Source: Blasia pusilla
Taxonomy: Eukaryota
Direction of reading: 5' to 3'
Assembly (NCBI GenBank): GCA_050084515.1
Contig: CM114271.1
Location: 14,756,001-14,820,000 of the forward strand
Length of the DNA stretch: 64,000 bases
Positions 1 through 25,735 of this stretch are shown piece by piece. Position 1 is the stretch's first letter. Every line of letters starts with the position of its first letter. Both the position numbers and the translations under genes were made by a program. The notes beneath the pieces are model-generated. The model did no database searches. It saw only the letters and a list, made by a program, of their open reading frames with translations, and was not told where the DNA came from.

Positions 1-397
1 CTCACGATATCTCCGCATCAACTGACCGATATGTCGAGATGAGACTCTCTAGGCCGTCTCATCTCGCTCCACATACATGTATCTCCGCACAGGAATACCG
101 GTCTGCAACACTGCAGCCAAACCAGTGCTAATCCCACAAAAGAGATCTAACACACAAATGCCCTTCGGCGGATACTGCCATACAATGGGTTTAGTATCCA
201 AAGGGAATACCCCAACAAGACCAGAAATAGGAGTCCACCATGGGGCCTCATCTTCCTTGCGAGGTATAACAACCTCACACCAAGCCTCCTGCACTAGGCG
301 ATCAGCCTCTTGCCATAGTGCACCGCCTAAACTCCAAAGTGGCACATCCAACAATGAGGATGCCACTACTGCAAAACTAGGGACCTCCTCTACCTCC
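1..397 (-). pseudogene. Gypsy pol segment: linker plus start of a DNMT3-like C5-cytosine methyltransferase domain (continues off the window)
   Basis: ORF 49..501 has C5-MTase motif I (VLDLFCGISTGL) and motif II (YMYVERD). It is colinear with 60374..60877 and joins ORF 12705..12941 in frame once the 398-12711 insertion is removed. Confidence 0.85.
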
Positions 398-505
398 GGG
401 GGTTGGTATTTTGACAGGAGAGAGTAAGAGAGGAGAGGAAGAGAGGAAGAGAGGAGAGTCTCTCTTAAAAAAAAAAGGCCAAATCCGCCTCCTCTCTTCA
501 AAACT
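398..505 (+). repeat. Left terminus with GA-rich subterminal inverted repeat
   Basis: GGGGGTTGGTATTTTGACAGGAGAG followed by GTAAGAGAGGAGAGGAAGAGAGG, which is inverted relative to CCTCTCTTCCTCTCCTCTTACCGC at the right end. Homologues at 51136-51246 (reverse) and 61599-61650. Confidence 0.85.
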
Positions 506-1339
506 TTTTGACATATTTGAAATTTTTGTTTGCTTTAAAATTCAGGAAATCTTTAGAAGAGAGTATTTAGTGGTCCACATTTGGCCCTAAGAAAACCTCC
601 TCTTTCTTGGGGGCGAGAAAAAAGGAGACATCATAAGACCACCCTAAACATTTTTCCATCACTCTCCATGTGAGCCTAAGTTTCTTAACATTCCCTGTCT
701 CGGTCAACAAAAAGCAGTGCCCTTGGTATTTTTGTTGGAGGACCACCCGGATGGGTACCTCTCTTTTTGCAGGTATTTTTTCCTGCATTATGGCCTCCCC
801 TAAATTTCCCCATAACCAACTTTCTGTCGGTTATGAATGGTGTCTGCTCAAGATCAACTTTCTGAAATGTGAACAAATCAGATCCTAAGGCTGAGAAACC
901 GAGAAGCTGCACCCCTCCCAACCCGTAAGAAAGCTCACCATAAGAAAGGAAAAGATTTTTAGAAGTGATTTTCTTCCATCCTGCACCCACGACGATCTAA
1001 CGGGTTGGGAATCCGAAATGGCAATCCGACAGGTAGTAGGAATCCTGCATATCTTAGACAAGAAAAGAAGCCTACAACTGGTTGGACGAATGAAGGGGAA
1101 CGAGCCAAAAGTCAAGAAGCCCGCCACAATGCGTCAAAAGTTGGTCTCACCGGGATCACTCAAGCAGTCAACCTGTCGGAATCCGACAAGTTGCCTGGAA
1201 ATGGTTAAAAAGTTGAAGTGGGAAAAAAACAAAAAGTCGGAATCATACGGGTTGCAGAATTGTAATTCTGAGTATCTAAAAGAACACAATCCACAAGTCC
1301 AAAAACAGATTCCAGCAAACTTTTACAAACACCATTATG

Positions 1340-1700
1340 GGTTGAAAAAATCTCGTCCTTTATTACCTCCGAAGGAACCTCGGAAATGTACATTTCACCT
1401 AGTCTATGATTTCTTCAGCCTCGTCATCTACAAATTTACTCCTAACTCTCCTCGATGACAGTACCAAAGGAATGTTTTGGGATTCAAGTGGCTCCTCTGG
1501 CCGATTGTAGACGGGGATAGAAAATGTTGGCGAATTCGAGAGCCTTGGCCCCCCCCTAGGTACACCATAACGGTCCCATGTAACCTATCTCGAGTCCCAC
1601 CGCCTTCCTAGGCAGTATACCTTGTACGCTCTGCAATGTGACACCCATCCAGTATCAATATCTGCTCCGTCCCCGGTAATACCACTATGGCAACCGCACA
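1340..1700 (+). pseudogene. Small third ORF of the DNA transposon, unknown function
   Basis: LVYDFFSLVIYKFTPNSPR*QYQRNVLGFKWLLWPIVDGDR matches LVYDFFNFIIYKFTPNSPRFVYNKNVLGYKWLL*PIVDGD in the second copy (~48900-49185, minus), with synonymous codon changes. Confidence 0.55.
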
Positions 1701-2788
1701 GGTAGAAGGAATCCAACACGTCTGAGAGAAGAAAAGAAGCCTACGCCTGCCTTTACGAGTTGAGGGGAAGGTGCCAAGGAAGAAGCCCGCTAGATCGCCT
1801 CTTAAGTTGGACCAACAGGAAAGGTCCGATCAGGCAACTGTCGAATCGAATCAGGACGAGTTGCCTGGAGGTGGTAAAAAGGGTGCAGTGGTCAAAAAGC
1901 GAAAAGTTGCAAGGAGGAGAAATCCGACGGGTTGCAGTGGTCATAAAGTGAAAGTTGCAAGCAGGAGAAATCCGACGGGTTGCAAAGTAGAAGTCCGTGG
2001 AGTACATAGACGATCACATTCGAAAAGACAAAAAATGATCAGCAAACATTTACAAGCACCACCATCGATCGAAAAAATCTTCTGCTTTATATCATCTGAA
2101 AAAAGCTCGGAATTGTACATTTGATCTATTCTATGAAATCTTTTGCCTCATTATCAAAAAACTCCCTACTCCAAACGCTGCAGTCAAGCTGGGTAGTTGA
2201 GTTCTTTGAACTCACTCGTCATCGTCTGAGAGCTCTTGCAAAATCACTTTCGGCCTTGCCCTCCCGATTTTGGGAATCGTTGGAAGTGACGATGGAGTGA
2301 CTACCAAGGGTGGCTCTGGAACCGAGCTCGGCCGGTGGAGAGTTGTACGCCCCAACGAGCCTTTCGATTCTCGCCTTTGCCTCCTTGCAAAGGTCAAACA
2401 GTTCCTGCCTTCCCTCGAGGCAGAGAATGTTCGTGCCACTCTGCCAGGCGCCTTTGATACTTGCCCCTGAAAGTCCCACTAAGTCGAACACCAAGTCACC
2501 CGGCCTTGAGCAGAGCTCGATGAGCGCTTGCATCGTGGTGGCGACTTTTCCCTTCCTCCTAGTGGGGTACTATCTTGCATGTAAATTTCGGGGAATTGTA
2601 CAAACTATCTAAGTGTACCCATCGAGCATGGATCCACAGGATCCTGGATCTTGAACACCGGAAATTGTGCTCGGGCGAACGAAGCAATAGACGAGGAGTG
2701 GTCCATCTCAGTAAATCAAAGACGTTGGAAACAATGTCGAGAAACTAAAGAAGTCGCCTTGAAAAATTTTCAATAATCGACTTTGGAT

Positions 2789-3156
2789 CAACTCCGTCGG
2801 AGTCCGGCGGGTTGTTTTGTTCGGACCAACCGCCGGAACCCGGCGGGTTGCGATTCACAGGTTTTCCCGGTTGATTTTGGTTTTGGATGCAACCCGTCGG
2901 AAGGCGACGGGTTGGTGGCCTAGAGCAGCCCATGCTCGCCTAAGAGCAACCCGTCGCTATCGACGGGTTGCATCCAAAACCAAAATCAACTGGGAAAACT
3001 CAGTAATCGCAACCCGTCGGGTTCCGACGGGTTGCAGATACACCGCAGTTTTCCCTGTATGTGGGAAAGATGCAACCCGTCGGAAACCGACGGGTTGCTC
3101 TCAACCGAGCATGGGCTGCTCTAAGCCAGCAACCCATTGCCTTCCGACGGGTTGCT
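2789..3156. repeat. Intronic palindrome array (7 units, ~60-bp period in the right part) with foldback
   Basis: GCAACCCGTCGG-n-CCGACGGGTTGC variants at ~2789, 2827, 2888, 2946, 3009, 3071 and 3129. Confidence 0.9.
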
Positions 3157-5249
3157 CACAGACAAAAAAAACCCAGATTGACTCTCATTATACACATCAT
3201 TAAAATATAATTGAAATTATAGTACAGGAATCGTCGCGGATCGGAGTGGGTACTCGTTTTTTATGATCCACGATTGTGCCGTTTTCCACTTTAGCGACCT
3301 CTTGACGCACTGGAGGTTGAAGAGCTCGTCCTCGCTCCCTCTAGTCAACACCAAGAAGCAGCCCCTGTCACTCAGATAGGCGTCTGCAAAGCAGTACAAA
3401 AGTGCAATCTGGTCATAAGTGAGCGGCACATTCCACTCAGGTACCTCGTCCGACGGATTCTCACCCCAAAGTCGCAACCCCGAGGGCAGATCGGCGATCA
3501 AGAGATCCACCGCAACCTCTTCGACCACTCCATTCACCGTCCACGCAGCGTGCCCATTTCGTTGGAGCTTCCGTCCCAGCGTTGTCAATTTTTCGATGGT
3601 CGGTGTCGACGCTTGAGAATCGAAGCTCTTCACTCATCCAAGAAAGGAGTGAATCAAGGAGGACGCTTGTCCGGGTCGTTGTTTGTCTGTGTCTTCCCAA
3701 GGATGATGGGCTGTATTCTCCTTGGGACAACCCGGGCACCTCTCGCTTCCGCTTCTCCCTAGCTTGGGGACGGCTTGTCGGGGTTTCTATGACCTCAGAT
3801 TCTGGTGGCGTTTTTTTCGCCGAGGACCTAGTCCGACCCTCTCTCCCCGCTCGTCCGGACGATTCCGCCTCTGGCCTTGAATCTTCAGCCTCTCTTTGGG
3901 AAGACTTGGCCTTTGAATTTTTCCCTCCCCTCGCCTTGCCTTTGAGACCTTGTGGATTTGTCTTTGTCGTCAGGCGGACCTTGGAAGCCAACTCGGTGTC
4001 TCGTGGGCCTGCTTCTTCTGCATCTCCTCCGAAGAAGTCTTCTTTGCCGGACGAAATTGGGGATGTCGTCTTGTCTTGAGGCCTTTGCATCATGAAGCAC
4101 TCGTAAGTCCTTATCCGTGATGTCTTGTGGTCGTTGAAGTCGAGCCAAATGGGGCAATTCTCCACCTCCCAATCGGACATGTCTTCGCCCCATCTCCACG
4201 TCGTACATGGAGAATGTCTCGCATCCGGCGGCGAAGCCCACAACTTCAAGGCTACCGGTAATTTTCCCCACGCACTGCGTTCTTACATCGACGAGGTACC
4301 AAGACCATCCGTTGGGCAACTTTTAGTCGAACAGATCGCCGTCTGCTCCTGTAGATCTCGCTTCTTCTTCGCTTGATCCCGTTTGTTCCCCTCTACTTCT
4401 TCGTCAAGCTCTGCCGAGGAGGACGCAAACCTTGAACATGGTCTTGAAACCTGAGTTTTTGGTTGGCTTGTCCCGGATGTCGCCGAGCCAAACCTCAAAA
4501 TCTCCGAACTTTCAAGGTTTGCTTCGCGGAATGGGCTCTAATCTTCGAACTCCGCTTGCAGGCACCGCCCAAAGACGGACTTCTCGATTACCGATTACCC
4601 GCAACGCCCCCAGAACGACCATTCGCATAGCCAATGCGAGATCATCGGATCGGACACACCGGAGGATGGTGTGCCGCCTCTTCCGGGCCTCTCGAGCCCT
4701 CGAGATCGATTTTCATCGGTCGTATCCTCTGAACTCGCTTATCCCGGATAACGAAACCGATGCACGCGATCCAAATGACACTTTCTCCCAATCCGACCAT
4801 GCGGATCTTCATCCCTCTTCATTTGGCGCTTGATAATCGCTTCAGCTCCTTGTAGAACTCCGGACCAAGTTCGGGTTGAGAATCTTGATGTATCGCGCAT
4901 CTTGCTCGCCGTGTATTTCGTTGCAGATCATCGCAGCTTGATGAATTTGGCGCGCTCAGACGCAGACACCTTCTCCCTCCGCTCCTGCTCCAGTGCAGCG
5001 CTTTTCTTCGCGTCCTATATCTTCGACCAACAAAGGATGGTTACGGCTGCATCTTGAGAAATAAACTTGTTTGCCCAAGTTTTCTTCTTAATCTGAGCAC
5101 CCTTTGCAAGCATCTGATTGACGAGGGCATTGCCCAAGAACCCCCTGTACTCTCCCGGGTGCGTCGTAAGCACCTTCCTCACCCGATCGCAGTCCTGGAT
5201 CCAGTGGTGGGTGATATTCCCCTCCGATATAATCCTGGACATCCAAACT

Positions 5250-5968
5250 CAACCCGTCAGGAAATTACATGGGTTCCTCCAACCCGTCGGACTCCGACGG
5301 GTCGTCACAGCTCAAGGTCGGATTCTAGCAACGAGCTAAATGATGCAACCCATCAGAGTCCGACGGATTGCATTCAGATTTGCTAATGCCTGGTAAGAAA
5401 ACCGTCGGAGTCCGATGGGTTGCTCGATAGGCCGCCTTGTGAGGGTGTTTTTTTAAGAATGCAACTCGTCGGACTCCGACGAGTTGCTTGAGTGACTGCA
5501 GGTTTAGAAGGTTTTTTCCCCAAAGCAACCCGTCGAGTCCGACAGTTGCTTGCCTCGGCCGCTTTTTCCCCAAATCAACCCGCCCGAGTCCGACGGGTTG
5601 ATTTCGCCAAAAATAGCGAGGCAAGCAACCCGTCGGACTCCGGACAGTTGCTTTGGGAAAAACCTTCTAAACTCAGATCACTCAAGCAACTCGTCGCCGA
5701 GTCCGACGAAGTTGCATTCTTCAAAAACATCCTCACAAGGCGCTTTGTCGAGCAACCCGTTGACTCGACGGTTTGCTTTGGGCCAAAAACTAGTTAAATC
5801 TATGTTCAATCAAACAAGTCGTCGGAGTCCGACGAGTTGCAATCTTAAAAAAACATCCGAAAAAGCGTGCAGTCCAGCAAGCCGTCGGAGTTCGACGAGT
5901 TGCTTTCGGCAAAAACAAACCTAACCCATTCATCAATCGAGCAACTCATCGGAGTCCGACGAGTTGCG
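5250..5968. repeat. Intronic palindrome array (~13 units) with a ~375-bp foldback
   Basis: Repeated CAACYCGTCGGAnTCCGACGRGTTG. 5399-5574 is the inverted copy of 5601-5774. Confidence 0.9.
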
Positions 5969-7456
5969 AAAGTGTTAAAGATACTCACGTGTTCATGGCA
6001 TGCATTGCCATCTCCACCGTCGCCATGTGATGAGGGTATGGGTGAAGGACCACTGCCTTCACGCAAAAATGTGCCTCCAATGAGTTGGGCCGCTCCTCCG
6101 CAAACTTGGTCCACGCCATGAACCTATGATTTCCATCCCAGATGAAGAAATGCAGATTCCTCATCCAGCTGAATTCCGTGCCCTCAACTTGCCTTCTAAA
6201 GTCCTGGTCTCGCATCCTCCAGAATGTGTCGAGCTTTTCCAAGTCCTCCTCGGTAACCAGAGCTTGGGTTCCATGCTCGTCGTAAGGCTAAACATAGAAG
6301 GGAGGAAAGATGTCGACGTAGGATGCTGTCGCCGCCGATTTTTTTAGCTTCGCGATGTCCTCGACGGACTGAATTTCGTAGGACGTATTCCATTGTCCGC
6401 AATCGGCAGAGTGGAATCCTCGGGGCATTGTGGCCCTCCATGAGTGCCATCTGCTTTACCACCTGTCAGAACTAGGACAAGAGGAATAAGCTACACTGAA
6501 ATCCCAATGAATTGCAATTCACATAATTAAAAAAACCCAGAACCTCTCTTACCCGCTCGAAAATGGGGTCGGTTTCTTGACCAGCTAACTTGTCTGAGAC
6601 AGAGGCTGGCAAATCGACTGGGAACTCGTTGATCCGATAGAGGTCGATGTCCTCCGCCGGGCTTGGAGTCGAGAATGACCGCTCTCCGGCTTCTTCGGCC
6701 ATGTCCACCATCTCCACGCTGGCGGTCCTCATGACCTCGTCATCATCGATTTCAACTTTTGGCGTTTCCACTATGTTGATTGTGTCCCCGGACTTCGTGG
6801 GGGACATTTCCCGCATCTCAACACTTGCGGTTGGACGGGCTGGGCTATCGTCAATGGCTATCGCTTTTTCCCTCCTCGCTTTAGCCAATTCTGCCCTCCT
6901 CACCGACGCGTCCAGACGCTTCTTTTCTCTCTTTTCGTCGGCGATCCTTTTCTTCAAGGCCTGCGACGTCTCGGCCTCTGCGTTCTGTTTATCTAGCGCC
7001 TCTTGAACACGTCTCGCAAGAAGCACTTGGTTGTGCATCTCCGCTTCCCTTTCCCGCTCCTCGATTTCCTGCTGCCTAATTTCATTCACCGAACGAGGCC
7101 CAGGAGAAGCTGATGCAGGAGTCCTAATGGACTTCGGAGTGAAGCTCCCAGACTTGTTGGCTTGTGATTTTTTCCTCGTCATTTTTTCCGGAAATGCCTC
7201 CACCTATGTCCACGACGAATCCCTTGATCAGTCACCTTGTTGATGTCGAGATGGGAGCTTGAATCGCCTTGATGGTTAGCTCGAATCGTCCCGCTATCGC
7301 TCGGTCGAAGCGTCTCGCTCTCGTTCCCTCCTATCGACTCGCGATGTGTCGCCGTGTGAAATGCCCCTTCGTATCTGATCAGCTGCTGCACGGGAGAGTG
7401 AGGAGTGAGGAATGAAGATCGCGAAATGAGAAACCGGAAATGAGCGATTTCTGCCC

Positions 7457-7464
7457 TATTTATA
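7457..7464 (-). promoter_or_regulatory. Candidate TATA box of the ParB-MTase gene
   Basis: TATAAATA on the minus strand, ~275 bp upstream of the ATG at 7182. Confidence 0.5.
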
Positions 7465-7552
7465 CTTTTCTAGCCGTTGGGCTGACCGTTGGGTCCCGTC
7501 GTCCTTTCGACGGTGACGTGCCGGATGTTACGGAAGTCCGGACGTGAAAAAT

Positions 7553-8270
7553 GGCAACCCGTCGGAGTCCGATAGGTTGCCCGGCTCCGCCATCCTGGGT
7601 ACGTCACCACGTGCACGAGCAACCCGTCGGAGACCGACGGGTTGAGCGCCTCCGTCGTCTTCAGAAAAGAACGCGAGGTACCCGCGCAACTCGTCGGAGA
7701 CCGACATGTTGCGCGCCTCCGCCATCCTGGGTACGTCGCCATGTGCACGAGCAACCCGTCGGAGACCAACGGGTTGAGCGCCTCCGTCATCTTTGGAAAA
7801 CAACGCCAGGTAGCCACGCAACCCGTCGAAGACCGACATGTTGCGCGCCTCCGCCGTGTTTGGGACGGGAACGGGACGTATCTTGGGCAATCCGTCGGAG
7901 ACCGTTGGGTTGCACGCTTCCCTCATCAAGGGTTAAGAACGAGGGCTTCCCGTGCAATTCGTCGGAGTCTGGCTGGCTGCACCACAAGGCGAGGCCCTTG
8001 CGCAACCCGTTGGAGGGCGATGGGTTGCACGCCTCGCCGTCTTTGGGCTAAAAGGCGAGGTACCCGCGGAACTCGTCGGGAACAGACGGTTTGCACGCCT
8101 CCGGCATCTTCGGGCAAGAAGGATCGGTATCCGAGCAACTCGTCGGAGAGCGACGGGTTGCTCGCTTTGACAATGTTTAGCAGAAGCGTGCAACCCGTCC
8201 GATGCCGACGGGTTGCAGGCTTCGGTTAGCTTCGGGTAATTTTTGAGTTACCAGGACTCCGACGGGTTCC
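7553..8270. repeat. Intergenic palindrome array between the divergent genes (~12 units, ~66-bp period, A/B higher-order repeat)
   Basis: Units at ~7554, 7619, 7686, 7751, 7818, 7887, 7954, 8002, 8069, 8134 and 8189, with alternating related spacers. Confidence 0.9.
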
Positions 8271-8483
8271 AAGTGTGATGCGCAACCCTTTGCTTCCCAA
8301 ATCCGGTAACATATTGCAACAGAATTGAATGTGTTACAGAATTGGATCCATTGTGTCAGACAATGTCACCCACCGAATTCATCTTGTCAGTAAAAATCTG
8401 TCAAGAGTATCTGTTTCCTATTCACTATAAATTAAATATTCTCATTCTCATTCTCAGTCTCCTCCCATTGGAATCTTCTTGGA

Positions 8484-11400
8484 ATGGATAATTATGTTAA
8501 GCTCACTTGTGGCAGTCATCTGGCGGCCCTTCCTCAATCGGAAATCATTCGACCCCAAGCTCGTTAGTCTTTCATAGCAGTGGATGAATTTTTTTGTCTG
8601 TTCGATTTCTTCTTCAAATTGGAACCATCTTTGTATCCAAAGATGTTAGGGTGGACGGTACGGAAGACATAATAGGTGAGACGGTCCAGCCAGTGACCTC
8701 AGACCGTAAAGTATGGAATCTCCTACCTCTACCAAATGGTCAATACAGAGTTTACGGCCCCCCGATCGTCTGTTTCCCAAGTAGACGGTCTAGAATTTCC
8801 TAGTGCTCCGAGCTCACGTTTGCAACTCCAAGCTCTGCAGATCCGGCCGACTCCAACCGTGACGCTCAGAACAATTTTGTTTTTCTGAAGAGATTCCGGA
8901 TGTTATCAACCTCGTGATCTGCTTCGGGCACCAATCGGGCCTCTGTCCGCCTACGTTCCTCTTGCGAGTATCGGCAATAGTTTGCTTTGTCTCGCCCTTG
9001 AAAATGTTCAAGCACATTCTTGTCGACGATTTAGCCGCCCCACGTCGATGGTAATTGCATTTTTGAGTTGCCTCCACTTGTCGCTCTGCTCAAAAGAAGG
9101 ATGGAGGACGCCTGAAGGGTATGGACAGAAAGTCTGATTGTCATCGATGGTGCAGGCTTCAACGGACAGTGCTTCAATTCCAGATGGTCCTTGGATTGTC
9201 TCCCGCCGCCAATGCGTGGGAGCCTTGGAGTGTAGAAGTCCAGCATGCCCGTATCTAGAGCGCAACGGGCGAGTCAATACGTCGCAATTCCCTCCCAAGA
9301 ATGCAGAAACTCCATACGAGGTCGGTGCCACCATACCGCCGGAGGCCATCGATGTCCTCATTGTCGCATCGCCTTCTACGTTGGAGCGTGTCCCGCATAC
9401 ATATTTTTCATTGTCCACGACTTGGGCTCCACGTCAGAGTATACAAGGCTGGCTGTCCATGTTGGCTCCCACACTCATCCTGTGACCGATGCAATTCAAA
9501 GACACATCAAGGAGGATGTGGCGAAGAAAGTAGCCGAGGTCTCTGAGAAACTCCGGGTTCAAAGCCGGAGTGATCAAGCTCACAACGGCATCACAAATTT
9601 GTGAACAATTGCTTGGAATCCCTGGACAGGGCGAGATCACGGCGGTTGAGGAGAAACAACTCTGGGAAAATCTCGCATTTCTCGCTGATCCTGAATGCGT
9701 CAGATACGAGTTCTAGATGGAAAGACGGCCGAAATGGATGCCATCGCCAAAATCAAGGCCAACTCCAAATTTCCATTCATTCAGAGATGGCAGTTCATGG
9801 GCCAAGGAGGTGAGGGATCCAGGGCCTATGTCTTCAAAATGTCAACCACAGGTCCGTCGAGTGGCCTCGATCTTATAGATCGAATGTGGGAAGGGGAAGA
9901 TCTTTACGGGAGTTGGGTAAGCTTTGATATTTGCTACAAAGTGCTGAACGGATGGTTGACGATGGGTGCTCACATTTATGACCATGTGGAGAAGGGACTC
10001 AAAACTATATTTGTCTGTGAAGTAAAGGCAGAAGACGTTGGCAGTTTGAAGATGTGCTGGTTACTCTTATTGGAGGTGGTGAAGGAAAACAAAAGGCCAC
10101 CTCCGGAAATTTATGGGTTCATGGCGGACAATGCACAACCTGGGTGGATTGCTATCCGGGAAGTGTTATGGGGTGGAGAGGTTCAACCGGAGAGGGAAAG
10201 GTCGGATGCTTTCCATTGGCCACAGTCTGTGACCCGGTTGACCAAATCTTGCATCAAGGAGAATAAGAGGACAGAGCATGTCACTCTACTCCAACGCTGC
10301 AAGGACAGAAAAACCTTGAAGCAGGCCATGGAATGGCAGGAAGAACTTCATGGGTGGTGGAGGAAGCATGCGATTGAGGGGAAGTACAAAGAGTTGTGCT
10401 CTTGGTTGAGTTGGTGGTATGCGTATGAGACAATGGGGAAACTTCATGCGGCAGGTGAGTTCACTATTTTGTCTTGTCAAGCTCACGTTGAGAATTTTTG
10501 TAAAGTTGTAGCTCAGGATGAGAAGCGTGGGAATTATATGGATTTCAAACCCAAGAAACCAAGCAAGCTGTCGGATGCGACGGGTTGCCCGAGTGTGCAA
10601 CCTGACGGAAACCGACGGGTTGCCCAAGGGTGCAACCCGACGGAAACCGACGGGTTGCATCCAGATGTTTGGTGCAACCCGAGTGTGCAACCCGTTGGGA
10701 TCCGACGGGTCACAGAGTCGTTCATGGGATGCCTCGGGCCTGCAACCCGTATGGTTCCGACAGGTCGCTTATTTCTTTGACTCCTGAGTTATTTTCGTTC
10801 CCTTCTAACATTGCCATCGTTGCAGGGATTGAACGTTCATGAAAATGCTCTCTGCCCCAACACAAGTGGAGCACAAAGTGTTCATTCCTCTTGGAGGTCG
10901 TCACAAGCATGCCAACGAATTTCACTTGTGGAGGCATGCCAACAAGACTCGGCAAGAGCAATGCTACAGTCTGCAGCATCCCATATCTTTCTCACAAAAG
11001 GCATAACAAAAGGAAAAGGGCCGTCGATCTAGGAGCTCTATGTCAGGGCGGCTGTGAGATCTTGTGATGAAAAATTGTATGTCGAAGCCTTCAACCGGTG
11101 CGTAGCTGGAACTCCACTTGAGCAAGACGTGTACACATAGGTGGGGATATTTGTGGGCGGGTTTCAAGACGTCCCATACAGATGGTGGTAGAGCAGTCCG
11201 AACGAGACGCGTGGAGACCAGATAAGTATCTTGACTTCAGGTAGGTGAAGAGGCAGCATCGAGGAACCAATCCGGTGATTGATTTGGATGAGGAAATTAC
11301 ACCGCCCAGGTATTCGGGGACCCCGGACCCGTCCCAAATCCGTGATGGAGTTACTTCTCCAAAATCAGTGAATGTTTTATTTCAAAAGCCCTCCGTTGCT

Positions 11401-12328
11401 GGAAGTTCGCAACATCCTGTCACTGGGGTGGTTCAACAATATGGGATTCCGATAATGGAGGTGGATTGCAACCTAAAACGGTGGCTAAAACGGTGGCATA
11501 TATCTCGGAGCAACCCAGGACGTGGACCCACATGCGGGGTAGGATCTGATGGCATTAGGAGAGCATGCGGCACTTTCCTAAATAAGAATCAGACAAGGAT
11601 GGACGACCTCTGCACTGGTTTTGGGGACTCAAAACCTTTGATTGTTTCACGAGGACCAGGGGATCAATTGAAGTACTTCTTCTGCCCAAATGAATCTTGC
11701 GCTTTCTGGAAGTCTTATCCGGCTGCTATTGGAGCTCCCGGGAATACCCCCACGATTTGGCCCATTGCCGCACGCACGAACTACACTCAAGACGAAGTGG
11801 ACAATCTTACAAGTGCCGGTTTCAGACTCGTAGACGGGGGAAGTTTGGAGCATGTTCAGACGAGAGACCTTCGTGATTTCAGTATTCAACCCAAGATTGA
11901 TATCAACATGTACCCGGAGAAGGTGGATGATCTCAATCCATTATTTTTGTTTGAGTCTAGAAATGGGGTGAAGAGAAACAGAATGTGCAGGCCAACGGTG
12001 GAGAGAGCAAAGCGAATTGCAGAAAATGGAGATCATCACCACAAAAGATGTCTTGAGTGGCAATGGAATAGGAAGGATGTATTGGGTCAGGAACAACACT
12101 GTAAATTCAAGTGTCACAGGGGTGTATATGGTGCACATCTGTTGCTTTCCCACATGTTCATGTGATGACTTTGTCCAAAGAGAGACAAGTGGCAAAAGGT
12201 ATTTCCCTTGTAAGCACATGTACTATGTGTTGCTGGTAGTTTTAAGAGAGTCGGAGGTAGGAGTAGAAATCCACCAACCAATTCTGTCCCTCAAAGAAGT
12301 TTGAAGTATTTTAAACAAACCACTTTGA
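8484..12328 (+). pseudogene. MULE-type DDE transposase with N-terminal GCM/WRKY-like zinc domain and C-terminal SWIM finger (frameshifted)
   Basis: GCM-like RRQCVGALECRSPAC...CPHC...CPAY...HTHP (9200-9480). DDE core WVSFD...GFMADNA...DAFHWPQS (9695-10450). Intron 10455-10825. PNTSGAQSVHSSW. SWIM PTCSCDDF...FPCKHMYYVL (12150-12235). TATAAA at 8426. Start codon uncertain. Confidence 0.8.
10562..10770. repeat. Palindrome array inside the transposase intron (~5 units)
   Basis: TGCAACCCGACGGAAACCGACGGGTTGCA at 10631 plus variants at ~10565, 10596, 10686 and 10741. Confidence 0.85.
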
Positions 12329-12711
12329 GGATGCAAAATGAGGTTTTAGATTGTACTTTTATTTTTTTCTCAACCTTCACTTTGAGCTTGAACTCTATTC
12401 AGCCCCGGGAAAATGACAGATTTTTCCCAGACCTTGGATAGAAAAAGTGATTGGTTCCACACTTATGATTCCACTAATTTTTCAGTTTTCTAAATTTTGT
12501 GCAATTCGCAACTCGTCGGACTCAGAGGGGTTGCCAAAATATGGAAGAGGAAAAAAAAACTGTGGGACTGCTTAATATATGAACAAATAAGTGCAAAAAA
12601 TTTCAAACAAAATTTTCCTCTCTTCAACCCAACGGAAACTCTCTTCAATAAAAAGTATCTATTTCGGTTGACCCTAGTTTCCTCTCTCCTCTCTTCCTCT
12701 CCTCTTACCGC

Positions 12712-15202
12712 ACCTCCTCTACCTCCTCATGCACAGGAGAATCCATAGTAGAAACATTACCCTCCAAAAAGTCTCTTGGCCAAGTGACTACTCCACTAAA
12801 ACCAGCCACAGATGCTAACACCGTTGGGGAAAACCCTCCTGATCGAGCCCCATAAATAAATCTCACAGGAACTTGGCTCAGACGTCCATACCCGGATTGC
12901 CAACCAGGTCTATAAGACGTTGTCTCAGTCCAGTAATCCATCTAAAAACCCATCGGGTACAATACTTCTCCTCCAACTAGTACATCCTACGACTCGGCTG
13001 ATGTGACCACTGCAGGTACTCCCAACCGGGAGCTATCAGTCGCATGATCTGGTCTCAACTGTACAGAAAAGTTCTCCCGTGTCATGAATTGAGACCTATC
13101 ATTGGCTCCTCCAAGTGATGTTTGAATCTGGAATGGGCAAGGCTCAAGCTCTGACCTCCGAATATCCAAACCAATACATGCCGCCTTTCCCAACATCAAA
13201 GGTTGGGCACCAGAGTCTAACAAGACTCTATCTGGTCTATACACCTGTCTTGTAGGACTCACCAATCGGAATATCCCACTCTGGTTGTCCAACATACATA
13301 CACCAAGTGTAAGCCTCTCACGATCAATGGCTGGCCGGGCTGGTAATGCATCCATCTTCGCCGCTGCTGCATGCCAAGTAGCACTGGTACTCAATGCTAC
13401 ACCTGACATAAAGGGTCGCTCCACCGCAACACCCTCATCCACCTCAGCACCTGTAGCAGTAACACCCCTACGTTCACACAACGTGGCTACTAGCTGAAAT
13501 ACATGAGCTAAGTCAACTCCTAAAGCCACCAGCTCCGTGGCCGAAAACAATTGGGATCCCAACACTGAAGTTGCCACCCGCAATACTACACTGAATGCTG
13601 CATCCGTGTCTACTACACGCGATGTAGATGCCTTAGTCCCCACTGTCTGCTCAATAGGTTGCGTAGGAACCATGGATGGAGTCCTAAGCACCTCAGACAA
13701 CAAGAATGACTGGGGAAGCCTAGCCTGCCTCCCAACCTCACCCCTCTGTGGGTCCAACTCCACAGTAGCACCACGTGGCTCTGACGCTCGAGTGGCTCCT
13801 CTCGTAACCGCAGCTGATGCCTCAACCTGTGGTAGGAGTAGCCACCGTAGGCTCTCCAACCACTGATCCACCTCTATCACCCCTACTACCTCTACCACCT
13901 CGGCCTCTCGGAGCTACTCCACCATCGCCGCGGCCTGCTCTCAACTCTGGATGAAGATCAAAGCAACGCTCTCGAGGATGACTTGGTCTCCCGCAATGAT
14001 CACACTGAGTTGGGGCCGACTGAGGCCCATCCTCCAAAGTCCGTCTCCCATCCTCTTGGGGACAAAACCTCCTAACATGATCACCTCCACATGTCCAACA
14101 TGATTGTCCTTGCTGCGGGGCAGCAAATGAAGGCAATGGTCTCTACGCAAGTGTCCCTCTAGGACTTGACTAAGGTCGTGTGTACCCCCCATGACTCCCA
14201 CTACTACTACCACCACCACTACTATGAGACTGTGAGGTGGGCTACTAAACACGAGAAGTAGTAGTTGTATCCCTACTGAATGCGGATGTCACTACTCTCA
14301 CCTTCACCATGTTAAGCTCAATCTTCTCAGATAGAGAAAACACATGGGTCAATGTGGGTGAATCATCACTCATAAGAGTAGCATCATGTACGGCGCAACT
14401 CTATGTCCAAGATCCCATACCAAAACTGGGCTGCTTGAGCCTCAGTCATACCCTGGGTAACAGAAATCAAGCGTCCCATACGAATGTATGCCTCACAAAG
14501 ACTCTCACCAGTCTTTCGCTCAAATTCTTGAAGACTCCTCAACTTCTCTGTCTTCACTCCCTGATAGTTCTTCTTCAACCTCTTGAAGAACTCTACAATC
14601 AGGCTGAACGATGGTGGGACACTAGTACCCCCACTGGTACCTCCATGGATACCTCCACTGGTACCCCCACTCCGGCTTGTACTTGTACCACTCAACTTTG
14701 GGTTGGCTGGCATAATAGGAGCACTACTACCAATACCACCATGGGTGATAGACACATAGCCTAGAGACCAATATTGTCTCCACGCCTCAATCTCAGCAAC
14801 ATGGTCCTTCCTAAACTCATGGTAATCATCCATGGGTGGTCCCTCCAAGTGCTGAAACAACCCCTTCCAAGCCAAGAAGGGTGTAAACAACGTGGCGTTT
14901 CGCAACATCTGCATATCACACCACGTATCAAACTCCTGCATGAAGTCCTCCAACTCAATGGTGCCCACTGCACCCGAGTATCGTCGTGGGCCCTTCATGG
15001 CCCCATATATCCCGTCCATATCTCAAATCAATGGAGCTACAACACTCGATAACAACGTAGAAGACTCGGTGTTTGGAACACCCTCGTCCTCCTCTTCATC
15101 AATCGTCGGAAGTGGACAAGGTAGCCGATACCTCAATCCACTCCGTGTAAAATCACCACTGTCTGCACCACGGTCTCCAACCAGACCACCAGACAGCTCC
15201 AT
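12712..15202 (-). mobile_element. 5' half (gag, two zinc knuckles, protease) of the DNMT-carrying Gypsy split by the DNA transposon
   Basis: Gag 15019..14384. CWTCGGDHVRRFC and CDHCGRPSHPRERC. Protease VLLDSGAQ (~13220). Homologous to 60900-63300. Confidence 0.85.
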
Positions 15203-16498
15203 TGAGCCCTCTAGTTCTAGCAAGAAGCTTTGTAAGACTAATTTTCCAATGCCATTCACAGGAATGGGGCGTTCTCGGAAAGTGAGCGAGTTTCTAACGG
15301 AACTCGAACTTTATTTCGAAGCGCAAAGGCAAAAAACAAGACAAAGTGATTGTAGCGGTCACGTTTCTGAAGGATCACGCTCTCCATTGGTGGACGGCTC
15401 ACCGTAAAGAACATCTAGGTCGTGGGAAAACGTTGAGTTGGGAAGATTTCAAGGAGTTGATTGGGAACCGATTCACTCCGGAATATCAAGAGTATCGCGA
15501 TGGCATGGAGGTGGTGAGGTTGCGCCAGAGTGGATCACTTGGCGCTTATGTGTGAGAGTTTAGTGCGCTCATGAGTGCACTTTCCACGGATGAACATACA
15601 AAAAAGGTGATCTTCCTAAGTGGGCTCAAACCGAGTGCCGAAAAGGCCTCTTTTCGATGCCTCACATCCCCAGACGGCGGATCTTTTGAGACTAGCAGAG
15701 CGGATTGGGGACGATGAAGTCCAACACCCGAAGCCCTTTGAGACAACAAGTTTTTCTAAGTTACCGAAGAACAAAGGGACATCCAAGAGGGTTTGGAATG
15801 GGGGTGAACGCGACCACGTAGGGTCTCTTGCCCCAGCAGCGAAACGAGTGGAACTCAACGCGAAGCCAAAGGGGCCACTGTTTACGAAGTCAACGAATGC
15901 CAAAGTGATTTGCTACAATTGTGGCGAACCCGGACATATGGCTAAGGAATGTGTTAGGCCCAAGGTTAATAAACCGAGTATGATTGCGTTTGCCGCTAAG
16001 CATTTATCGGAGGGAGATCTAGATACATCTCTACAAGTCACCAAGAGAACGCCCAATTTGGTTTACCTAGGATCCAGGATCGCTAATCACGATGTGATGT
16101 TGCTCGTTGATACAGGTGCTTCGCACTCATTCTTGAGTCCGAGAATCGTGAAAATGTTGGGATTACCAACCACCAAGGCGGATGAACCCATTAGGGTAGG
16201 ATTTGCGGGAGGCAAGTCACCAGACTTCAGATCTGGTTTTAGGGCTAGTTGTGAGATGCGGAGTATTTGAGTTGAAGGAGAATTTTACAGTTTGCGACAT
16301 GGACGGTATCGACGGAGTCTTGGGGAACACGTTCTTGGATGCGTATGAGGTGGAACTGAGGCAAAGACCTTTGAGGTTGAGTGTCTTAGTTAACGGCAAA
16401 TGGACGGACGTCAGATTGGTTAGTGAGGTGCCTAGGAAGACGGAGTTGGTGAACGCCATCATGAGGAAGAGTTTGGCCGAGTTAGAGGAAGGATTCCT

Positions 16499-19210
16499 TT
16501 GCTTGATGAGACGAGTAGAGGATTATGCAAGCGCGAGATGCAGAGATCAGAACTCAGCTTCAAGGGGAATCCTGAAACACTCAAAAGAGTTGTGAAAGAA
16601 TTTGGAGATGTGTTGACTAAGGAGCTTCCGACTAAGTTGCCACCACATAGGGCGGTTGATCATAAGATTGAGGTGATATCAGGATCTCAACCACCGTCAA
16701 AAGCACCATATAGGTTGAATCAAGAGGAACTTGCTGAGTTGAAGAAACAGTTGGGTGAACTCCTAGAGAGGGGTTACATCCGAACAAGCAAGTCACCTTA
16801 TGGGGCGCCCGTCCTCTTTGTAAAGAAGAAGGATGGGAAGTTGAGACTCTGTGTTGATTATCGGGCGCTGAATAAAGTGACGGTAAGGAATAACTATCCT
16901 CTACCAAGGATGGATGACCTCTTTGATCGATTTTCGGGTGCCAAGTATTTCAGCCGGATTGACCTGAAATCAGGATATTATCAAATTCGGATTGCCGAAG
17001 CGGATGTGGAGAAGACTGCGTGTAGAACGAGATACGGTTCGTTCGAGTTTGTAGTGATGCCTTTCGGTCTTTGTAATGCGCCTCCGACGTTTACCACTTT
17101 GATGAACTCCATCTTTCATAAGGAGACGGATGAGTTTGTGATCATCTATATAGATGACATACTCATCTATTCGAAAACACTAGAGGAGCACGCTCGACAT
17201 TTAAGGACGGTGTTTGAGAAACTTAGGGTGAACAAGCTGTATGCGAATACGGATAAGAGTGAGTTCGGTTTGACAAAGATCAAGTTCTTGGGGCATGTGG
17301 TTAGTGCGGATGGAGTGAGTCCAGACATGGAGAAGGTAAGCGCGATTTCTGAATGGGAACTGCCTTCCACCGTGAAGGGGATGAGAAGGTTCATCAGAGC
17401 AATCCAATTTTACCGGACATATATGAAGAACTTTTCGGGAATAGTGAAACCTCTCACAGATTGGACCGCAAAGTTTGCCAATACTACATGGACCGAGGAA
17501 GTGGATAAAGCGTTCAATCGAGTCAAAGAGATCCTCTTGCAGGAACCAGTTCTGAAATTGCCCGAGTTTGACCAACCGTTCAAAGTGCACACGGATGTTG
17601 GTGATTTCGCGATTGCGGGAATGTTGGTGCAAAAAGGGAGACCTATAGCATACAAAAGCAAGAAGCTTAGCGACACCGAAAGGAGATGGCCTACTCATGA
17701 GAAAGAGTTGTTTGCGGTGGTTCATTGCTTGAGGAAGTGGCGTCACTATCTGGGACTTCACAGGACTCGAGTATTCACCGATAACATATCGCTCAAGTAT
17801 TTTGAGACCCAGGATCGCGTGAGGCCAAAAAAACTTTGGTGGCATGATACCTTGGCGTTGAGGAATGTGGAGCTAATCCACAAGCCGGGGAAAGACAATG
17901 TCATTCCAGATGCGTTAAGTCGCAGGGATGAGCACATGCCATCGACGACACAAGTGTTGAGAGCAATGTTCCCTAATGAAACAGACCTGGAAAGAAGGAT
18001 TCGTGAAGGATACATGAAGGATGCGCAAGCGAGGGAGTACCTTGGGAAGTTAAAGCGGGGCGAGAAGGTGGCCAATCTGAGTTTGAGACATGGCTTGCTA
18101 AATTTTAAGCAGAGCAGGATCTATGTAGGCCAAGGCAAGCTATGGACCAAGGTGTTTGTGGAATGTCATGATGGACCTTTGGCGGGACACAAAGGGGAGA
18201 AATCCACTCTTGCTGTTTTGACCAAAAGGTTCTTCTGGCCCAACATGAAGGAAGATGTTGCTCAATATGTGAAGACGTGCGTGACCTATCAGGCGAACCG
18301 CGTTTCTTATGCGAAGAAACAAGGCTTACTTCATCCTTTGCCAATCCCGGAGGGACCCTTGCAAATCATTAGCATGGATTTTATTACGAGTCTTCCGGAA
18401 TCTGAGGGATACAACGCTATACTTGTGATAGTTGATCGATTTAGCAAGTTGGGGAGGTTTGTGCCGATGAGAGAGTCTGCGACGGCCTACACGACTTCCC
18501 GACTATTCCTGGATGGTTGGTGGCGAGCGCACGGATTGCCTAGGAGCATTGTGTCCGATCGAGATCTCAAGTTTACCAGTGCCTTTTGGAAACATCTATT
18601 CAGGAGGTTCCGGACCAAACTCAGCTTTAGTACGGCCTTCCATCCTCAAACGGATGGGCAAACGGAAAAAGTAAACTTGGTTGTAAACCAATACTTACGG
18701 AATAACGTGAGTGCGGACCAAAGAGATTGGGCCAAGTGGTTAAGTATGGCTGAGTATTGTTACAACTCAACTAAGCATTCTGCAACCGAAGAATCTCCAT
18801 TTCTTCTGGCGTATCAAAGGGAACCAGAAGGGCCTCTTGACTTAGCTCTTTCGAAGGGCGCTACATTGACACACACTTGTCAAGCAACGGCGGAATGTTT
18901 GGAGCTGCCAAACAAGTTCAAGATTCACCCGACTTTCCATGTGTCATTATTGAAGAAGTATCTTCAAGACAATGTGCGTCCGGAGCGAAGGAGGATGTTG
19001 AGACCACAACCGGTCATCAGAAATGAGGAACCAGAGTTCGAGGTTGAGACCATTCTACGTTCTAGACGTAGAGCCACCAAGTACGAGTACTTGGTCAAGT
19101 GGAAAGGCTATCATGTGAAAGAGGCAACTTGGATTGCGGAGGCGGATCTTGAACATGCACAAGAAGCATTACGTGACTTCAGATGGATGCAAGAAAGGCA
19201 CATGCGTTAG
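16499..19210 (+). CDS. Gypsy pol: RT, RNase H, integrase, chromodomain
   Basis: LCVDYRALN, MPFGL, YIDD. Integrase SMDFIT, IVSDRD, HPQTDGQTE. Chromodomain FEVETIL...YLVKWKGY...ATW. Apparent deletion of the GPY/F region near 18890. Confidence 0.95.
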   Translation: MLDETSRGLCKREMQRSELSFKGNPETLKRVVKEFGDVLTKELPTKLPPHRAVDHKIEVISGSQPPSKAPYRLNQEELAELKKQLGELLERGYIRTSKSPYGAPVLFVKKKDGKLRLCVDYRALNKVTVRNNYPLPRMDDLFDRFSGAKYFSRIDLKSGYYQIRIAEADVEKTACRTRYGSFEFVVMPFGLCNAPPTFTTLMNSIFHKETDEFVIIYIDDILIYSKTLEEHARHLRTVFEKLRVNKLYANTDKSEFGLTKIKFLGHVVSADGVSPDMEKVSAISEWELPSTVKGMRRFIRAIQFYRTYMKNFSGIVKPLTDWTAKFANTTWTEEVDKAFNRVKEILLQEPVLKLPEFDQPFKVHTDVGDFAIAGMLVQKGRPIAYKSKKLSDTERRWPTHEKELFAVVHCLRKWRHYLGLHRTRVFTDNISLKYFETQDRVRPKKLWWHDTLALRNVELIHKPGKDNVIPDALSRRDEHMPSTTQVLRAMFPNETDLERRIREGYMKDAQAREYLGKLKRGEKVANLSLRHGLLNFKQSRIYVGQGKLWTKVFVECHDGPLAGHKGEKSTLAVLTKRFFWPNMKEDVAQYVKTCVTYQANRVSYAKKQGLLHPLPIPEGPLQIISMDFITSLPESEGYNAILVIVDRFSKLGRFVPMRESATAYTTSRLFLDGWWRAHGLPRSIVSDRDLKFTSAFWKHLFRRFRTKLSFSTAFHPQTDGQTEKVNLVVNQYLRNNVSADQRDWAKWLSMAEYCYNSTKHSATEESPFLLAYQREPEGPLDLALSKGATLTHTCQATAECLELPNKFKIHPTFHVSLLKKYLQDNVRPERRRMLRPQPVIRNEEPEFEVETILRSRRRATKYEYLVKWKGYHVKEATWIAEADLEHAQEALRDFRWMQERHMR

Positions 19211-22216: not shown

Positions 22217-24092
22217 AAAGCAATCTTCAAGAGCGTGGTATTCAAAGATTGACCAACACATGATCAGTCAAGGATACACCAAAAGCGACTCAGATCACAG
22301 TGTTTACAGTATGAGACATTGAGTTATGATTGTTGTCTTGTATTTAGATGATTTACTCATGATCAGTGACAGTTCGCTGTTTATGAATGGGCAGAAGCGT
22401 GCGCTACAAGAGGCTTTTGAGATGGTTGATCTAGGAGGTGCCAAAGTTCTCTTAGGAATCAATATAGTACGAGATCGCTTGGCTGGTACCATCACAATTC
22501 ATCAAGATACTTTCATAAAGAGTATCTTAGCGAAGTTTGGATTGAGTGACTGTAAACCTATTTCCACTCCTATGGAACTAGGACTAAAACTCTCCAAGTC
22601 CATGTGTGCTAAATCTGAGAAAGAGATTGAAGATATGTCTATGGTTCCTTATCAAAGTGTCAGAGGGAGCTTGCTTTATCTTCTTTGTTTGCACCGGACT
22701 GCAGGACATATCATTTCTGAGGGAGTCCTTTGCAAGTACATGCATAACCCAAGACCAGAACACTGGAAAGAAGTGAAAAGATTGTTACTCTACCTCAAGG
22801 GAACTCCAACAATGGGAATCACATATAGCTCAGGAACCTCCACCATATTATATGGGTTCACAGATTTAGATTATGCTGCTGATGAAGACACCGCAAGATC
22901 AACCTCGGGATATATCTTCATATTGTGCTATGGTGCTGTGAGTTGGAGCAGTAAACTTCACCAAACTGTTGTTTGTTCCTCAACAGAGCAGAGTACATTG
23001 GCATTGCTCATGCAGGGAAGGAATTGTGGCTTCGATACTTTCAACAAAGATCGGGTTTCCATGTGAAGGACCTCTGATTCTCTATGGAGATAACCAAGGA
23101 AGTATTGCACTATGCAGTAATCCGATTCATCATGCGAGAACTAAGCATATCAATGTTCGTCACCACTTCATTGGAGATCTGATGGGGATTGAAATTGACC
23201 TAAGGTTCATTGGGACTGAGGATATGGCAGCTGATTTCCTCACCAAATCATTGTCATCTATCAAGCATACAAAATGCTTGAGCAAGATTGGCATAACTAA
23301 TTTTTGCTGAGTGGGAGTGTTAGGATTTCACATAAAATTGTCTGCTGTTTTCTTCCAGTTTTTTAACTATGGTTAGTTCTGCAAACTATGGTTGGAAGTT
23401 TATCATAGTTACAAGTCTCAGTTAGTTTACTAGTTACCTCTTTAACTATTCTTGTGAGTTTTGGTTATGTTTAATTGTGCATATGGTGTGCTGGCCTACC
23501 CTTGGTGTGTTGGCATGTTGTGTCCTCCCCTGTTGTCTTTGTCCCGCTCATAATGTCTTTGGCCTATTATTCTGGTGTCTTTGGCCTTCTCATGTTGTCT
23601 TTGGCCCTTCCACCTTGCCTTACCATGCAAGTGGTCCCTTCGCTGGTCTCTTGTAGGAAACTATTTAACTCCCCCTCTCTTCCCTTCTTCTTTGATTCAC
23701 TTCTACTCCTGCCCTCTAAGGCTGTGGGTTTCGAGATTAGCTCCTACATATCTGAACCTTTGCTGGTGCCTTGATCAACTAAGAAGGAATGTGCATTGGT
23801 GTGGAGAATGCTCCAAGTACCAATCTAGCACAAACTCCTGCATCTTGGTTTCAACCACCTCTGCAGGACTTGTGTTTTCTAATAAGGTGTTGCTTTTCAA
23901 GCACCCAGTTCTCAGTAGAAGTTGTAGACCAGTTTTACATGCAATCCATTTCAGATTTGCTCTTTTCAGGTTTGTAAGTGATTACCCTCATGTACATGGT
24001 TCAGCGGAAGATCTTGTCGGGATCTACTATCTTTCTATCATTTTAAAGTTTTAAAAGTAGATCTGAGAGGAAGTAGAATTCTGATTTCAACA
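22217..24092 (+). mobile_element. Ty1/Copia 3' fragment (RT, RNase H) plus 3' LTR 23318-24092
   Basis: YLDDLL, YGFTDLDYAAD, GDNQGSI, RTKHI. PPT GAGTGGGAG. LTR TGTTAGG...TTCAACA. Confidence 0.92.
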
Positions 24093-25721
24093 ATATAAAG
24101 GACATTTTTGAGAAATAATTCTCTACAACCTTTCAGATTTAGATGAACTTCACCTTTGGAAAAAGTTTCGAGCTTGTGATTGCTTGCCACTGTTATATTA
24201 CGTGTAGAGATTTTCTGAATGTTGCTAAAACAACTTCTCTTACCGCACATGTGAGATGTTGCTCCACTATCAATGTACCAAGCATCCCTAGAACTTGATC
24301 CGAATGGTACATCATCATCGCTCTTCAACAACATGAGATTTCTCGGAAGTGTTGAACTTTCCCAAGATTTTCTTCTTCCCTCTCAGGTCTCTCACCTTTT
24401 TCCAACAGACCTCTTATGTATGGTTCAGCATGTTGCAATATTTGCACTTGAGCTTCTTCTTGCCCTTTTCATTGTACCCTCTCTTACCAACCTTGGCAGC
24501 AAGAGCGATCTCATCAGATACATTGTTCCTACCTGCATGCTTCGATTCTTCATTGATGAGTTGTCCGTTGACATACTCCCAGGTAAGTTTCTTTTTCTCT
24601 TGAGCTTCCAACACAATACTCACAGTCTCAAAACTCTTAGAGAGAGTGCCGAGAAGTAGACCTACTTGGAAAAAATCGTCTACTTTGAGACCTCCTTCAA
24701 TGAGAGTAGAAATTATCCCTTTCACCCTCGCCACATGAGAAGCAACAGGCTCAGATTCGTCCTTGCGCAAGTTCACAAGGTTCCAAAGGACACTAAAGAT
24801 GTGTCCTACAGATTCAGTTTGTAAGCCTTCTTTCACAGTCTCCCATATGGCATGAGCATTTGGTTTGTCACGAGCCATCTCTATTGTAGAGTCTCCCATG
24901 TTCATAACCAATGCAGCCATTGCTCTATTGTTGGATTTGATCCATTCTGCATCCAACAGTTGCATTGTTGTTGGTACACATTGGACCACTTCTCAACAAT
25001 CCTTGTGACAACAAAGGAATCTTCATCTCAAAAGACCACTTTCTCTAATTAATAACATCTAATTTCTTACTAACCCAGTGATCCATATCACTTTGTGGGC
25101 CCATAACCTAAAAGAAAAACAGGAGTAAACAAATACTGACTTTGATTACAGAGCGCTAATTTATTTCTCCAAGCTCCAGGAAGTTACAACAGATTAAAGA
25201 TACATGGAATAGCTTCACAGAGGTCAAATAGGAAAGGAAACTCTGTACTTACAAAAACATGAGAGAGATCTGATTGATCTACTACTCATAAACTTCCTCC
25301 CTATAGGAAGAAGAGACTCTCTACACTATTGATGCCTTTTCAGGCAACACACTATCTCCTCCAGCAGCAGGTCCTCCAAAACATCAACTCCTTCTATCAC
25401 AATAGGTCAGCCACCCAAGCTGAGGGACAGCAATCATGAAGTTCGCAGGTCCAAGAGCTGGGAAAGTAGAGAAGAGAATAAGAGTGCTCTGGTAAGCCTC
25501 TTGCTCTTATAAGACAGCCCCTAGCTTTCTTAAACCCTAAAAGTCTTTAACTAAGGCTAAAGGAGGTTATAATGAAACCCTAAAGGTTTTTAACTAAGAC
25601 TAAAAAGGCTATTGCGAAATCCTAAAGGCCTAGTTAATAAACCTAAAAATATAATTTTACCTATAGATAAAAAAGTAACTTTTCATAGTAAAAAGTATAA
25701 TTTTTTGTTCCTGATCTTACA
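24093..25721 (-). mobile_element. Ty1/Copia 5' fragment (LTR ~25109-25721, PBS, gag, protease)
   Basis: PBS GGTTATGGGCCCA (25108-25096). Gag 24989..24414 with CKYCNMLNH. Protease WYIDSGATSHM. Confidence 0.85.
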
Positions 25722-25735
25722 GTTGCAATTTCAAC

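Follow-up and report, generated by a model that had tools for sequence, protein, structure and literature searches.

Transposon-encoded proteins that combine a ParB-like domain with a DNA methyltransferase (MTase) have previously been described from algae, e.g., for the element Sola1-1_Ec32 of the brown alga Ectocarpus, where a 1104-aa protein with a ParB-like and an N4C/N6A MTase domain lies opposite to the transposase and for which similar green- and red-algal proteins are cited (PMC12477816). Among the cargo of red-algal Plavaka elements (PAG2/PAG3) are a ParB-like domain and a methylase of PF01555, with inverted-repeat arrays beside the ParB gene and homologues on Mutator elements of Chondrus (bioRxiv 2025.02.11.637652). 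Both papers, published in 2025, proposed that such proteins bind and modify their own element, a proposal that comes without tests (PMC12477816, bioRxiv 2025.02.11.637652). Fusions of ParB with N6_N4 MTases are also known from phages, and Srx was named the main eukaryotic member of the ParB-CTPase fold (PMC12704722). The current study concerns a 64,000-nt stretch of the Blasia pusilla genome (GCA_050084515.1, contig CM114271.1, positions 14,756,001 to 14,820,000 of the forward strand; hereafter the window, with all coordinates relative to its first letter), in which a transposon of about 12.3 kb carries a spliced gene with a ParB/Srx-like exon and an MTase-like domain. An architecture already described for algal transposons is hereby extended to land plants, and the land-plant occurrence, for which the literature searched gave no precedent, as well as an MTase motif DLP[S/T]G without an aromatic residue are new. 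The encoded protein very probably comprised about 1,200 residues from four exons, i.e., a low-complexity tail, a ParB domain, a helical middle region, and a beta-class N4/N6 MTase-like domain. The parts of the gene are the following:

6553..7182, minus strand: exon 1, with the ATG at 7182, 210 codons, a charged low-complexity N-terminus and a donor GT at 6552 (phase 0)
5989..6462, minus strand: exon 2, the ParB/Srx-fold domain, broken here; fold taken from the intact copy L020
6123..6137, minus strand: DGNHR, the Box II or P motif (GxxR)
5235..5988, minus strand: intron 2, 754 nt, GT-AG, phase 2, containing 9 palindromes
3227..5234, minus strand: exon 3, an all-helical middle region, a low-complexity linker and the first MTase half; lower end approximate
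3478..3492, minus strand: DLPSG, the equivalent of MTase motif IV, without aromatic residue
2219..2706, minus strand: exon 4, encoding the other half of the beta-class MTase, with FDLVGLSG as the equivalent of motif I

An initial annotation, made from the letters of the window alone, had placed a ParB/Srx-like exon in the same spliced gene as the MTase. Its details were borne out, since the peptides IPLCRL, DIAKLK, FYV and FFIWDGNHRFMAW were located on the minus strand within 6462-5989 and the splice sites lie where they had been claimed, with the acceptor AG at 6464-6463 (phase 0), the donor GT at 5988 preceded by AC, and the next acceptor, AG at 5236-5235 followed by G, in phase 2 and completing a Thr codon. 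What did not hold for the window copy is the single open frame. Its exon 2 measures 474 nt, compared with 473 nt in intact copies, owing to one extra base at 6380 (this base is also absent from one RNA read and one contig), and it contains an in-frame TAG at 6290-6288; exons 3 and 4 are interrupted by more frameshifts and stops, and the third donor of the family is missing. Because of the exon 2 lesions, the breaks in exons 3 and 4 and the absent donor, the window copy is an inert pseudogene that is unable to make protein, and the properties discussed below are those of its family.

On predicted structure and motif conservation, exon 2 is a divergent ParB/Srx-fold, putative nucleoside triphosphate (NTP)-binding domain, as the initial annotation had proposed. 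AlphaFold modelling of the intact 156-residue exon 2 of L020 from a 95-sequence alignment gave a predicted local distance difference test score (pLDDT) of 91.5 and a predicted template modelling score of 0.86. A VIA structure comparison against 48,161 solved chains returned 16 matches at Z >= 2, the top 11 of which are ParB/Srx-fold proteins, with the remaining rows at Z <= 2.6. The best match was KorB (Z 8.4, root mean square deviation 2.1, 90 residues aligned), followed by PadC (Z 7.7), Arabidopsis Srx (6.9), Pnob8 ParB (6.2) and SerK (6.1); human Srx, Atu1540, SbnI, SspE, Spo0J and BrxU complete the group, with Atu1540, SspE and BrxU counted on our assumption that they have this fold. Foldseek ranks 1-10 are all ParB or Noc (best E 0.0095), and the viral structure list contains many ParB-named rows. 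The GxxR motif is conserved with G in 88, N in 95, H in 89 and R in 82 of 95 rows, WDGNHR occurs in 15 of 20 genome copies, and the pocket residue R27 and the terminal Asn are retained in 78/86 and 75/82 rows, respectively. About 90 of the 156 residues align, so that the ParB domain has a helical insert specific to the family, with a conserved Trp and Phe.

Sequence profiles tell against this assignment. The ParB-like profile match whose absence from exon 2 the initial annotation had named as a refutation was obtained from none of Pfam, NCBIfam and PHROGs, with no ParB_N at E 0.1 in Pfam among 95 homologues; the sole Pfam signals, all below the cut-off, were DUF1015 (E 0.012-0.014; 3/95 members) and DndB (2/95), and neither P0157 nor the alignments A3 and A4 retrieved anything relevant from the PDB by sequence. 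The structural matches are also modest in score, as just one VIA match reaches Z 8 and no Foldseek match reaches E 0.001. One might hence regard DGNHR as a chance resemblance in an exon without any ParB/Srx fold, to which the missing profile match would lend itself, but the confident model, the best structural matches, which all belong to one superfamily, and, as a lead only, an Atlas neighbour cluster with ParB_N on 11% of its members (score 0.94) make this reading hardly credible. The ParB/Srx assignment is thus owed to predicted structure and conserved motifs. A homodimer prediction with ATP and Mg, in which the alignment remained unused, scored 0.00 and is not evidence either way, and a count of exon-2 substitutions (36 synonymous, 25 non-synonymous) was set aside, as the copies had been chosen by protein similarity. 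No prokaryotic donor of the ParB part was found, the 20 clusters looked up being plant proteins or unnamed.

The fusion of this domain with the MTase is real at the family level. Six raw RNA reads with five different starts lack precisely 5988-5235; the gap has GT-AG ends on the minus strand, and the reads are on the expected strand and come from two of the three raw runs (X3, 2; X4, 4; X5, 0). Exon 3 of copy L029 is interrupted by a single stop 28 codons in and then stays open for 660 codons into motif IV (DLPSG), and exons 2, 3 and 4 of this copy match in order (E 9e-23, 1.6e-27 and 5e-11) to the Riccia sorocarpa protein P0156 (1207 aa), which contains both domains. Seventeen of 32 long homologues, all from Riccia sorocarpa, have a BLAST match to both ParB and MTase, some of them partial, and the protein P0097 of the fern Adiantum nelumboides carries both motifs; the Riccia and fern fusion proteins are computational gene models. 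The claim of one spliced gene is accordingly upheld for the family by splice reads, L029 and the Riccia chains, whereas the window copy itself is broken. Among the homologues that reach the terminal Asn of the ParB domain, 59 of 81 end no more than 3 residues past it, which would be compatible with an old intron at this position. Codon comparisons of exon 3 show purifying selection (ratio of non-synonymous to synonymous rates, dN/dS, 0.08-0.38 in 7/7 pairs), as estimated from pairs that were picked for open frames and in which CpG decay can inflate dS. At the transcript level, the single 7182-2212 transcript envisaged by the initial annotation is supported at intron 2 and at no other listed junction: the three raw RNA runs gave no listed junction reads for introns 1 and 3, RNA depth over exons 1-3 is mostly below 5x, and 0 of 649 raw reads are 99% like the window, so that their origin from this copy is not established. 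High RNA depth at 2184-2551 was not accepted as support for the full gene, since the reads concerned continue at loose ends into different sequence.

These gaps could mean that two genes or transcripts, one for ParB and one for the MTase, merely lie in tandem: no read spans the whole gene, introns 1 and 3 lack a listed junction, the Riccia proteins are modelled, and at 18 metagenome loci (L041-L058) with the ParB exon tblastn matched neither the MTase nor the transposase. These loci are mostly decayed, however, intron 2 is spliced, exon 3 of L029 runs in one frame into motif IV, and the chain as a whole has colinear counterparts in single Riccia proteins, so that a tandem arrangement is very improbable. 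Within the fused protein, the model of the middle region is all-helical (pLDDT 63) with generic helix matches only, and among the structure matches of this model no family containing a helix-turn-helix stood out. In the canonical ParB clamp (ParABS), the CTPase domain is followed by a helix-turn-helix domain and a C-terminal dimerisation domain, and the loading site is a cognate palindrome.

The MTase-like domain is of the beta class, with a permuted motif order in which motif IV precedes motif I. Exon 4 matched PHROG DNA methyltransferases at E 6e-5 and P0156 matched phage PHROGs at E 9e-7; Pfam N6_N4_Mtase (PF01555) gave E 0.07 in the window and, in Riccia, 5e-5 (P0156) to 9e-6, just under the cut-off, and 26 of 30 Atlas matches were of the PF01555 type. 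The UniRef label 'Trimethylguanosine synthase' on the Riccia proteins P0154, P0156, P0157 and P0169 looks like a misannotation of this domain. Intact catalytic motifs follow the consensus (D/N/S)PP(Y/F/W), in which the aromatic residue is required for catalysis, and no such motif was found here. Two features of the sequence speak against an active enzyme: motif IV reads DLPSG in 12 of 20 genome copies, with Ser/Thr at the aromatic position, and the window family has Leu at a glycine of motif I. Judged by the enzymology of such motifs, their degenerate state suggests weak or no MTase activity, and the conserved Asp, Pro and Gly suggest that the catalytic site still matters.

The MTase may be dead, and the same fusion could then act as an NTP-gated binder that writes no mark and either shields palindrome DNA from the host 5-methylcytosine (5mC) machinery or recruits factors. 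This version, which we consider rather unlikely, is consistent with the occurrence of D[LM]P[TS]G both in the window family and in Riccia (16 of 17 motif-matched homologues, the 16 being Riccia rows about 25% identical to the window family), with the weaker Riccia paralogue P0187, which lacks motif IV altogether, and with the inactive transposon MTases known for DIRS1 (PMC4738411). It fits less well with the retention of Asp, Pro and Gly at the catalytic positions across lineages, with the fern protein DVPFG, the only one to keep the aromatic residue, and with DFAGGWG in Riccia.

A candidate target of the protein is a 27-bp palindrome, present 35 times per window element and 0 times in the four exons of the ParB-MTase gene. 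Genome-wide, it has 923 exact matches per strand (control, 0). Palindromes are confined to the non-coding parts of this gene and are arranged as follows:

7554..8216, no strand assigned: array of 11 of the 27-bp palindromes between the two divergent genes
1168-1983, 2789-3155, 5279-5967, 10597-10768 and 12508: further palindrome clusters

Four palindromes at 10597-10768 fall in the tail of frame 9695-10780 of the transposase region, probably in a transposase intron. Downstream of the ParB-MTase gene there is also a degenerate direct duplication (1018-1443 and 1687-2170) with a spacing of about 670-727 nt.

According to the mechanism that we propose, the protein would recognise its own element via the palindrome arrays. 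Its ParB domain would act as a switch gated by an NTP (ATP or CTP, the choice being unpredictable), permitting it to load onto the element and possibly to spread there; the MTase-like domain would then mark or shield the DNA, and copies would escape host silencing as VANDAL elements do through VANC. Taken as a whole, with DNA binding, nucleotide use and effect all inferred, this mechanism is the most likely of the readings considered, yet tentative and somewhat more likely to fail in some part than to hold throughout. Published work weighs against it in part, as it is the helix-turn-helix that reads parS in ParB, not the CTPase-type domain, and no NTP binding was seen for 17 of the 28 ParB-fold proteins purified in that survey (PMC12704722); nucleotide specificity of the fold is, moreover, not predictable from sequence according to the same source.

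The ParB domain could alternatively be no loader at all. It might serve as an Srx/SerK-like ATP-using module or as an allosteric activator of the MTase, with the palindromes bound by the transposase or another factor. Srx, SerK and SbnI lie within about 1.5-3.4 Z of KorB in the structure comparison, the fold serves to bind ATP in fusions that lack a helix-turn-helix (PMC12704722), phage dioxygenases are reported to depend on a ParB regulator (PMC13229309), and transposases can activate cognate copies (10.64898/2026.08.24.746577). An unrelated transposon superfamily, however, also has inverted-repeat arrays alongside its ParB accessory genes, and the palindromes are dense in the introns of the ParB-MTase gene itself, so that we regard a non-loading module as unlikely. 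A considerably bolder version of the loading mechanism would see here a large undescribed family of liverworts, ferns and probably mosses, with a true eukaryotic ParB-type NTP clamp that loads at the 27-bp palindromes as the equivalent of parS, slides, and blocks host silencing by means of an altered or dead MTase domain; this we consider distinctly doubtful.

With respect to its genomic context, the gene is located inside a plant DNA transposon, as the initial annotation had assumed and as the element ends shared across genomic copies demonstrate:

398..12716, no strand assigned: whole transposon copy, about 12.3 kb, of a high-copy family with degenerate purine-rich termini
388..397, no strand assigned: target-site duplication on the left, 10 bp, with its second copy at 12717-12726
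9695..12304, plus strand: transposase-like frames, DDE-like by eye, with a SWIM finger at their end; they are oriented divergently to the ParB-MTase gene

The left end at 398 is common to 9 blast rows and the right end at 12716 to 4 rows, and target-site duplications of 9-10 bp were seen by eye at 5 other copies, one of them with a mismatch. Mutator transposons and Mutator-like elements (MULEs) generate target-site duplications of 9-11 bp. The element is MULE-like on the basis of this duplication, the SWIM finger (E 0.005) and DDE-like residues recognised by eye; profiles did not confirm the class, as neither PF10551 nor a profile of the other MULEs of this genome matched the transposase-like frames. 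Loci of other MULE families (20, with 10 kb taken at each) showed no match to ParB or the middle region and no likeness to this transposase. Frames at 8454-9600, upstream of the transposase core and without family match, extend to 614 aa in copy L037, and the transposase therefore probably starts near 8500.

The search of the own genome covered 390 Mb in 26 contigs and gave at least 150 scored matches to the exon-2 family at 95-100% identity, from 2510 candidates; judged by these identities, the match of the family is not due to chance. The script seed used for checking exon 2 recovered 16 of 20 loci, and the acceptor AG, an open 473-nt exon 2 and the donor GT are intact in 8 of the 16 copies examined. 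Copies L026, L035, L040 and L065 sit inside other copies of the same family, their flanks matching element sequence, which suggests nested clusters. Elsewhere in the window, an inverted, diverged relative of the element lies at 47861-51246 (four pieces of 77-80% identity, comprising the left end and the MTase part) with 11 palindrome-like sites at 48137-50321, and a perfect-arm palindrome at 61691 is accompanied by a piece 76% like the right end of the element (61691-61900), probably the end of another copy. Long frames resembling gag/pol of long terminal repeat retrotransposons were noticed by eye only at 14384-19207 and 22323-26841, including one of 924 aa at 16436-19207 and integrase- and reverse transcriptase-like frames at 22-27 kb.

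Beyond Blasia, 759 clusters (50% identity) reached E <= 0.001 in a profile search over 1.84 billion representatives, with one liverwort and two ferns as named members, and all 26 matches of the homologue search are from Riccia sorocarpa, with no algal sequence among the comparison sequences. The metagenome loci mentioned above lie on AT-rich contigs that are eukaryotic in look, several of which carry imperfect-palindrome repeats of other sequence; among the repeat families displayed for the five loci scanned, the window palindrome is absent. The literature searched, mostly open papers without their supplements (among these the Bostrychia element table) and without Repbase, did not contain a land-plant ParB-MTase transposon, nor did the accessible parts of PMC4738411, PMC6431247, PMC11735767 and 10.64898/2026.08.24.746577 contain a land-plant case.

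Experiments could draw on a 156-residue domain with a confident fold, a defined candidate site of 27 bp, numerous nearly identical copies, and transcripts that are spliced. Were the domain an NTP-gated DNA clamp, it would be a case of the ParB switch at work in a eukaryote and, if the proposed effect were true, would add to VANC another plant mechanism of sequence-specific anti-silencing, with possible use in epigenome editing. We know of no ParB or MTase domain in VANC. The activity of this VANDAL accessory protein has been demonstrated and causes loss of 5mC, and the present protein resembles it in being an accessory encoded by a transposon and in its proposed action on motifs that recur in non-coding parts of its own element (PMC5735166). 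Another prokaryote-type beta-class MTase of a liverwort, DN4MT1 of Marchantia, is encoded by a host gene, retains an intact TSPPY motif and has been shown to have N4-methylcytosine activity; ParB is not mentioned in that paper (bioRxiv 2021.02.12.428880). The phage fusions share with the window family the same two folds in one chain, the GxxR P motif and the match to PHROG DNA methyltransferases, whereas the window family is a spliced eukaryotic one whose two domains lie about 500 residues apart and whose ParB domain has a helical insert of its own (PMC12704722). Plavaka distributes the functions over two genes, ParB-2-oxoglutarate oxygenase and methylase-SET, in contrast to ParB and methylase in one (bioRxiv 2025.02.11.637652). 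The closest counterpart is Sola1, which likewise has ParB and an N4/N6 MTase in one protein on the strand opposite to the transposase, an association with palindromes and the same hypothesis; this likeness is by description only, and a 21.5-kb element of the Sola superfamily in a brown alga compares with a 12.3-kb MULE-like element with a degenerate motif IV in a land plant (PMC12477816).
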